30,907 bases of DNA, from assembly GCF_003334385.1 (NCBI RefSeq), contig NZ_QOWN01000055.1. One strand, 5' to 3'. The notes beneath the pieces were generated by a model. The model was not told the origin of the DNA. It made no database searches and was given only the letters and a program-made list of their open reading frames with translations. This DNA is from Escherichia coli. Lineage in GTDB: Bacteria; Pseudomonadota; Gammaproteobacteria; Enterobacterales; Enterobacteriaceae. Shown here piece by piece: positions 12,083-12,239 of the stretch. How positions within the stretch are numbered: position 1 is the first letter of the stretch; the number at the start of each line of letters is the position of its first letter. The translations under genes were made by a program, and so were the position numbers.

Positions 12083-12239
12083 ACAAGTTCAGGATATATC
12101 TACAGCTCTGACATGATTCTCTGAGAGACATGACGGAGTGGCGGGGCAGCAAGCCAGAACACTGCCTGACATGCTTTCATCAGACGCAGGTCCTCTCTCA
12201 TATCCTCTGATTTACTCCAGTAAGGTGATGATCATATCT

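Follow-up and report, generated by a model that had tools for sequence, protein, structure and literature searches.

The 157-bp spacer between the convergent nanS and shiF genes is, as judged from genome comparison, the seam of the nan and shiF-iucABCD-iutA modules of a pheV-type Escherichia coli genomic island. The two modules were probably joined through copies of the insertion sequence IS2, followed by near-precise loss of the IS2 left between them, which would have as its end product the IS-free and terminator-less spacer now observed.

The window analysed here, a stretch of 30,907 nucleotides of E. coli DNA, is part of this island. Among 5,426 complete E. coli genomes searched by megablast, strains G8 and G1/2 match it at 99.97-100% identity, and the urinary isolate 118UI at 99.5%. 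In the latter, which carries the same joint, the island adjoins tRNA-Phe and a P4-like integrase/tyrosine recombinase, while no tRNA or integrase gene was found inside the window. Two metagenome contigs, L018 and L019, share 99.8-100% identity with the island despite being assigned to 'Bacillota bacterium' and 'Collinsella sp.' bins, and are almost certainly mis-binned E. coli DNA. The features of the window appear in the following order:

149-2520, first IS66-family copy (tnpA/tnpB/tnpC)
3182-12141, plus strand, nan module (second sialic-acid catabolism), genes up to 12082 plus a 59-nt tail, GC 0.395
11093-12082, plus strand, nanS-like sialate O-acetylesterase gene, the last of the nan module (from the ORF list; WP_000274668.1 in relatives)
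12083-12239, no strand, 157-bp spacer between the convergent nanS and shiF
12083-12141, no strand, first 59 nt of the spacer, belonging to the nan side, with ...GACGGAGTGG as their end
12142-12239, no strand, remaining 98 nt of the spacer, belonging to the shiF side and particular to shiF-iuc in its chromosomal-island version
12240-13433, minus strand, shiF, MFS transporter and aerobactin auxiliary factor, divergent from iucA (from the ORF list and the annotation of relatives)
13503-21518, plus strand, iucABCD-iutA aerobactin genes (from the ORFs and the annotation of 118UI and G8, 99.5-99.97% identity)
about 22000-22217, IS3-like integrase-core remnant
22218-24506, segment X (our own name), 2.3 kb, AT-rich, GC 0.36
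24996-27086, iha
27691-30107, second IS66-family copy (tnpA/tnpB/tnpC), same orientation as the first

The nan module comprises genes for a lyase, a kinase, an MFS transporter, a hydrolase, a KdgM-type porin, the NanM epimerase, an esterase, NanR (on the minus strand) and NanS. Its assignment is backed by NCBIfam profile scores of 273 bits for NanR and 500 bits for NanM, and agrees with the RefSeq annotation of relatives, which are 99.3-99.8% identical over 5000-12141. The name shiF for the MFS transporter upstream of iucA is taken from PMC12804835, where it is described as an aerobactin auxiliary factor found on ColV-like plasmids and chromosomal islands alike. The two IS66-family copies at the window ends are ~85-87% identical to each other and bracket nan-iuc-iha like a composite unit.

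Regarding the right half, the window is devoid of sat and displays an EHEC-type X-iha directly behind iutA, an arrangement found in about 14 genomes at ≥99% identity. While shiF-iucC is ~100% identical to Nissle, identity in iucD-iutA (~16900-21640) ranges from 78 to 98% per 250-nt bin; the window thus carries a divergent recombinant iucD-iutA allele, in the region that PMC11537424 reports as divergent in GI-pheV. The integrase-core remnant is common to the iutA-sat context of 118UI and Nissle and to the EHEC context upstream of iha, and is likely the crossover point that put X and iha directly after iutA in genomes of the window type. Descent of this half from the lineage with a boundary at 12161 (see below), with an iutA-X-iha order, was considered and discarded, because IS66 follows iutA there.

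Composition changes sharply between both modules. The first-pass annotation had laid out nanS (plus) and shiF (minus) as converging on a 157-bp spacer, which is correct, and had described an abrupt compositional change at the nan/aerobactin junction, which a sliding-window run confirms as the largest GC step of the window, the difference between adjacent 1-kb stretches peaking at 0.172 at about 12350. GC amounts to 0.570 in shiF and 0.527 in iucA-iutA, against the lower value of the nan block given above, and GC3 to 0.34 in nanS versus 0.59 in shiF. The k-mer signature agrees, with tetranucleotide L1 distances of 0.48-0.58 between blocks versus 0.22-0.24 within them, a ~2-fold difference. The step is therefore real, but its placement within the 157-bp spacer does not hold: a single change-point fit (LLR 89.6) puts the maximum-likelihood position at 12317, inside the 3' end of shiF and about 175 nt to the right of the sequence-defined seam, with GC intermediate or low in the spacer (0.47) and in the last 150 nt of shiF (0.43).

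This position inside shiF, whose 3' end is itself AT-rich, would fit an absence of any fusion, nan and shiF-iuc being ancestrally contiguous and the GC step reflecting gene-specific composition. We consider this scarcely credible, since tetranucleotide signatures differ as described, the adjacency is missing in most genomes with either block, and published work treats nan and shiF-iuc as separate modules (PMC11537424). The distribution across genomes contradicts the ancestral contiguity that the first-pass annotation had named as the outcome opposed to its proposal, and supports the proposal itself, namely the fusion of two independently acquired modules: the nan end lies against IS2 in 565 genomes and against the subAB flank in 14, without shiF, and shiF-iuc without nan is carried by plasmids of the ColV type and of Klebsiella, and also stands in different chromosomal surroundings. 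The relatives of the blocks differ as well. The closest relative of NanS outside E. coli was found in Proteus faecis (66% amino-acid identity), and Proteus faecis TJ1636 (L020) carries a syntenic nanM-esterase-nanR-nanS locus at 67-68% nucleotide identity, whose GC of 34% fits the AT-rich nan block; in this locus a gene for an EamA-like membrane protein follows nanS. The Proteus faecis lineage is accordingly put forward from these comparisons as a candidate donor of the E. coli nan module. With such a Proteus-like relative for nan, and Escherichia and Klebsiella plasmid relatives for shiF-iuc, the blocks are of independent origin.

The spacer itself was explored for features. In agreement with the first-pass annotation, which had noticed no obvious terminator or IS end, intrinsic or bidirectional terminator prediction in 12083-12239 returned 0 terminator-like sites, and neither an IS nor an IS remnant was detected there, IS2 having no similarity to any part of the window. 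Folding of the spacer relative to shuffled sequences revealed no unusual stability (z of +1.08 and -0.40), an Rfam search of it gave no credible match, and no inverted or direct repeats were found in it except an 11-nt direct repeat. Inverted or direct repeats marking the ends of the 12142-24506 block were not found either. A predicted 33-codon ORF, MREDLRLMKACQAVFWLAAPPLRHVSQRIMSEL (12096-12197, minus strand), crosses the seam and exists through the fusion alone.

Base-level comparison of junctions, including islands with shiF-iuc but without nan as the first-pass annotation had proposed, fixes the seam at 12141/12142, with the GG dinucleotide at 12140-12141 common to both partners. Joints were counted by megablast against the 5,426 complete genomes, which resolved discrete break-point classes. 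The nan end (...GACGGAGTGG) is present in 692 genomes, its partners being shiF in 107, a T followed by the IS2 left end in 565, and a T followed by the subAB 3' flank in 14 (for instance JNEC-KY176); nan homology in Nissle, KUN and JNEC stops precisely at 12141. For the shiF end (GGCGGGGGCAGC...), the partner is nan in the same 107 genomes, the IS2 right end in 274, a fragment of an inovirus-Gp2/YfjJ-like (phage-Gp2-like) gene in 349, including the ST131 strain JJ1886, and a truncated transposase gene of IS4/Tn5-like type in 44, O104:H4 among them. Alignments extend one base further in the IS2 and subAB forms than in the nan/shiF forms. This base is the native T that follows the nan end, which is kept in JNEC and in all IS2-bearing forms and is missing from the window joint. 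Relatives with IS2 exactly at the seam point read ...GAGTGG-T-IS2-GGCGGGGG..., and the G run of the window at 12143-12146 holds one G fewer than that of 118UI (4 G vs 5 G).

Of the recombination scar that the first-pass annotation suggested, the window displays a minimal form, consisting of the 2-bp GG microhomology and the missing T. The assembly route is not readable from the window itself, and emerges only once relatives in which IS2 persists are compared with it.

Further boundaries are nested within the shiF side. One at 12161, beside a truncated IS3-family element, is shared by about 200 genomes and some plasmids; another at 12231 is displayed by ColV-type plasmids at 90-92% identity; and homology to Klebsiella plasmids, of 81% identity, starts within shiF. 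The 89 nt of 12142-12230 are restricted to the chromosomal-island version of shiF-iuc. When plasmids were searched for native sequence reaching further left of the shiF tail, the ST131-type joint was the sole form retrieved, on one plasmid.

The element at the seam in relatives is IS2, 1331 bp long, with termini identical to the published 42-bp IRL and 41-bp IRR (oligonucleotide sequences, PMC3299598). No IS2 copy flanked by a 5-bp direct target repeat was found among Nissle, KUN, clone D, UPEC774 and 118UI. This lack of target duplication, together with the varying left partners, shows that the copies examined are all recombinant products of exchange between IS2 copies. Three further positions bear on insertion sequences in this region:

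24506/24507, X-iha point at which the right end of IS2 lies in Nissle, KUN, clone D and 118UI
12008-12011, 4-bp target duplication of a 1257-bp IS3-family insertion in the 3' end of nanS, strain G8
12084/12085, separate IS3-family insertion 2 nt past the nanS stop, metagenome contig L019

The last two indicate that the 3' end of nanS and the spacer have been struck by insertion sequences more than once; one end of the L019 element matches IS copies with an AL1L pseudoknot.

Nissle 1917 carries IS2 in two inverted copies on either side of ~27 kb, in the order nan-T/IS2/iha ... sat-iutA-iucDCBA-shiF/IS2/GT-Gp2 fragment. In this strain, as in KUN2017-0933, the T and IS2 stand in place of window positions 12142-24506. 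X and iha are contiguous in 695 genomes, including the EHEC O157, O26 and O104; the window is thus native at 24506/24507, and IS2 sits within X-iha in the others. A synthetic probe formed by 1000 nt of nan flank, T, IS2 and 1000 nt of shiF flank, for which coverage of at least 80% requires contiguity, retrieved an intact nan-T-IS2-GG-shiF arrangement in two genomes, clone D i2 and i14 (100% coverage, 99.8% identity). Clone D represents the inversion isomer of Nissle, with a pair of IS2 copies that are reciprocal chimeras of the Nissle pair: the Nissle copies differ at 26 sites, and those of clone D exhibit the patterns 1x20/2x6 and 2x1/1x25. Such a chimeric pattern implies that the inversion occurred by homologous recombination, with a conversion tract. 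The clone D isomers thereby show that recombination between IS2 copies creates the nan-IS2-shiF adjacency. 118UI had been expected to be another such isomer, a simple one in which iha is reversed, but this proved wrong, as its iha is co-oriented with nan and preceded by another recombinant IS2.

These observations fit the sequence of events that we favour. Each module would once have terminated at IS2, nan as ...GAGTGGT/IS2 left end and shiF as IS2 right end/GGCGGGGGCAGC..., homologous recombination between IS2 copies would then have placed both modules on either side of one IS2, and this middle copy would have been lost by a near-precise 1334-bp deletion between two GG dinucleotides. Removing 1334 bp (T, IS2 and GG) between the GG repeats of clone D yields the joint of 118UI exactly, and the window joint differs from this product solely by one G fewer in the G run. 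The enzymology would likely be an abortive copy-out strand switch or an IEE-like microhomology end joining. We infer both the origin of the window's own joint by IS2 loss and an IS2-bearing precursor within the same lineage.

The same shiF end offers a second case, for which polarity is established. At the second IS2 site, beside the Gp2-like fragment (D site), the sequence is ...GTAAACCGTCTACC in UTI89, whose Gp2-like gene is intact, ...GTAAACCGT/IS2/GGCGG (that is, ...AAACCGT/IS2/GGCGG) in Nissle, and ...GTAAACC-A-GGCGG in ST131, where the native GT is gone and the last IS2 base is kept. The corresponding deletion is of 1332 bp (GT plus 1330/1331 IS2 bases) at a CC microhomology, and the shiF-iucB background of ST131 shows 0 SNPs relative to Nissle. 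Comparison with the intact gene and this identity to Nissle together demonstrate that the IS-free ST131 joint derives from an IS2-bearing form, so that an IS2 loss of this type is established at the shiF end in ST131. Deletion sizes in both cases, 1334 bp for nan/shiF and 1332 bp for the D site, lie close to the 1331 bp of IS2, with microhomology at each joint (GG in the window, CC in ST131). Pseudogene fragments annotated as archaeo-eukaryotic primase or helicase, which might be remnants of the IS-excision enhancer IEE, a PrimPol-plus-helicase protein, were also observed beside this second IS2 site, on its D flank, in the relatives L002 (4198-4408), L013 (3530-3740) and L015 (28084-28164).

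The order of events might nonetheless be the reverse, with the IS-free joint being the primary fusion, formed by illegitimate recombination at GG (or TGG) between the native nan and shiF contexts, and IS2 arriving later and then driving the Nissle, clone D and ST131 rearrangements. SNP trees speak for it. In that of the nan block, with JNEC as outgroup because of its most divergent nan block, the topology is (JNEC,(window+G8,(118UI,(KUN,Nissle,cloneD)))), with 7 sites uniting 118UI and the IS2 forms and 2 sites uniting the IS2 forms only. In shiF-iucB, the IS2 forms and ST131 constitute a tight derived clade (0-2 differences), sister to window/G8, while the shiF-iuc of 118UI is a mosaic with a more basal allele from 13350 onwards. 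The IS-free forms being basal or sister to the IS2-bearing clade, the IS-free joint would be the older by simple parsimony, which argues against IS2 loss; for this model to hold, the same loss must have happened twice independently, or recombination must have carried the joint between lineages. The window further keeps the native X-iha order, while all IS2-bearing relatives have IS2 at 24506/24507, and the clone D form, the sole nan-IS2-shiF arrangement observed, is demonstrably recent and secondary, and therefore not the actual ancestor of the window joint. Also counting against IS2 loss are the failed structural expectation for 118UI, the negative searches for unrearranged original insertions described below, and the absence of an IEE gene from the window.

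Several features weigh on the other side. IS2 normally generates a 5-bp repeat, as its step II cleaves abutted termini with catalytic centres 5 bp apart (PMC3299598), while the flanks in GAGTGG-T/IS2/GG-CGGGGG overlap by 2 bp only. In addition, the extra T matches the base of the outgroup, and canonical insertion into GAGTGGCGGGGG cannot give the left flank; neither insertion nor intramolecular transposition into GAGTGGCGGGGG can produce the flanks observed. The extra T and the lack of a canonical 5-bp repeat hence indicate that the IS2 forms are not simple insertions into the IS-free joint. A base from the spacer of an IS2 minicircle was also considered as the source of the T and rejected: cleavage in step II falls at the abutted termini, and the D site has as its counterpart a GT that belongs to the native host sequence. 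Besides, ST131 offers at this shiF end a joint that is demonstrably IS2-derived, and the two block trees disagree on 118UI, which shows recombination and weakens their polarity. We therefore weigh the base-level evidence more heavily than the SNP trees and regard a primary IS-free fusion as unlikely, though it is the main competitor of IS2 loss. As to the requirement of two identical losses, a trace of two independent events might lie in the difference between the 4-G and the 5-G joint, and the nan/shiF joint may have arisen twice, once as the window type and once as the 118UI type.

Traces of the original insertions were also sought. An unrearranged IS2 in a JNEC-like nan context (IS2 right end followed by GTGGT and ATGGAG...) was found in 0 of the 5,426 genomes and in 0 metagenome contigs, and the reciprocal junction of the original insertion by shiF (GGCGG followed by the IS2 left end) in 0 metagenome contigs. 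The O104:H4 context was evaluated as the native uninterrupted left neighbour of shiF and rejected, since its match to the IS4-family transposase profile reaches only position 206 of 405 and ends no more than about 5 codons from the break point.

A further alternative is that the joint was made by a different agent whose end is fixed at 12141/12142, either an unrecognised mobile element terminus or a site-specific recombination site, IS2 being a frequent visitor to a preferred target. The joints of shiF with the truncated IS4-like gene (O104:H4) and of nan with subAB are compatible with it in that they hold no IS2 bases, and so is a recurrent 10-mer, CTGACATGAT, located at 12108-12117, 12166-12175 and 24529-24538 (one copy with 1 mismatch), at a distance of 22-27 nt from three break points at which relatives carry IS2 ends. 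This motif is only mildly enriched, with 6 hits window-wide vs 2.66 expected and 6 reached in 2 of 100 shuffles, and the flanks around the associated break points are otherwise unalignable; its recurrence may reflect either a regional target preference of IS2 or chance. Moreover, inverted or direct repeats do not mark the ends of the 12142-24506 block or of the spacer, an integrase or att-like feature is absent, and more than 800 genomes have an IS2 end directly against these very bases, for which reasons we hold such an agent to be quite improbable. In the intact Gp2 gene, TCACGTGAT occurs about 27 nt beyond its IS2 site.

Loss of IS2 thus being the preferred origin of the joint, its generality can be considered. 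End-directed, near-precise loss of IS2 would be a recurrent process that welds island modules in extraintestinal E. coli if all IS-free joints at the shiF side were products of it, in which case it has occurred at least three times at this junction: in nan/shiF (107 genomes), in Gp2-fragment/shiF (349, mostly ST131-like) and in IS4-like/shiF (44, O104:H4-like). We advance this only tentatively, as a possibility that falls short of an even chance.

Both modules had been described before. In the GI-pheV (intP4.1 type) of uropathogenic E. coli, a 'nan module' and a 'shiF_iucABCD_iutA_sat module' are reported as divided by insertion sequences and evolving separately, with a divergent iucD/iutA stretch (PMC11537424). 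The window resembles this island in the gene content of both modules, its mosaic structure and its divergent recombinant iucD/iutA, and the nan module of GI-pheV is highly conserved (99.6-99.7%; PMC11537424). On the contrary, the modules of GI-pheV are IS-separated, whereas in the window, as in the 107 genomes out of 5,426, nan and shiF abut without an IS; likewise, the second module of GI-pheV includes sat, while the window lacks it, X-iha following iutA directly. Plasmid aerobactin loci (ColV-type and Klebsiella) also share with the window the shiF-iucABCD-iutA unit and mobile-element debris by shiF, but they differ in their lower identity and in that homology stops at 12231 or within shiF.

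Two known systems offer parallels for the disappearance of an IS. Loss of ISApl1 from the mcr-1 transposon proceeds at 2-4-bp microhomologies, with deletions near the IS length (Snesrud et al. 2018, as relayed in bioRxiv 10.1101/2023.06.07.543989). As far as that account goes, the resemblance to the IS2 case is that a copy-out-paste-in IS vanishes by a deletion within a few bp of its length and leaves its cargo fixed and IS-free; the difference is that ISApl1 belongs to the IS30 family and acts in a plasmid transposon, while the present case concerns IS2, of the IS3 family, a chromosomal island and a putative precursor. In EHEC, IEE promotes excision of IS629 and other IS3-family elements (Kusumoto 2011; PMC9943667), and it is a PrimPol-type polymerase plus helicase with microhomology end-joining activity, for which use of 2-nt microhomology was not detectable in vitro (PMC9943667). 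IEE excision is like the IS2 case in the near-precise removal of an IS3-family element with microhomology joining, adjacent deletions also arising, and unlike it in that joining at 2 nt went undetected in vitro and that no IEE gene or IEE-like ORF was found in the window.

The nan and shiF-iuc modules of GI-pheV being already published, the seam is an instance of ordinary, known island mosaicism; what is added here is its exact position, the alternative partners with their counts and the case for the missing IS being IS2. Reach beyond this island is limited, as the mosaic make-up of pheV-type pathogenicity islands, with modules bounded by IS, is well documented. As a point of method, a clean IS-free spacer can conceal IS-mediated assembly, and population-scale comparison recovers both the seam and the vanished element. 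If the welding is true, the aerobactin module would have become fixed in place and the evidence of its arrival erased. If recurrent IS2 loss is confirmed, the notion that IS removal immobilises cargo would extend from mcr-1 transposons to chromosomal virulence modules, for example those of ST131.
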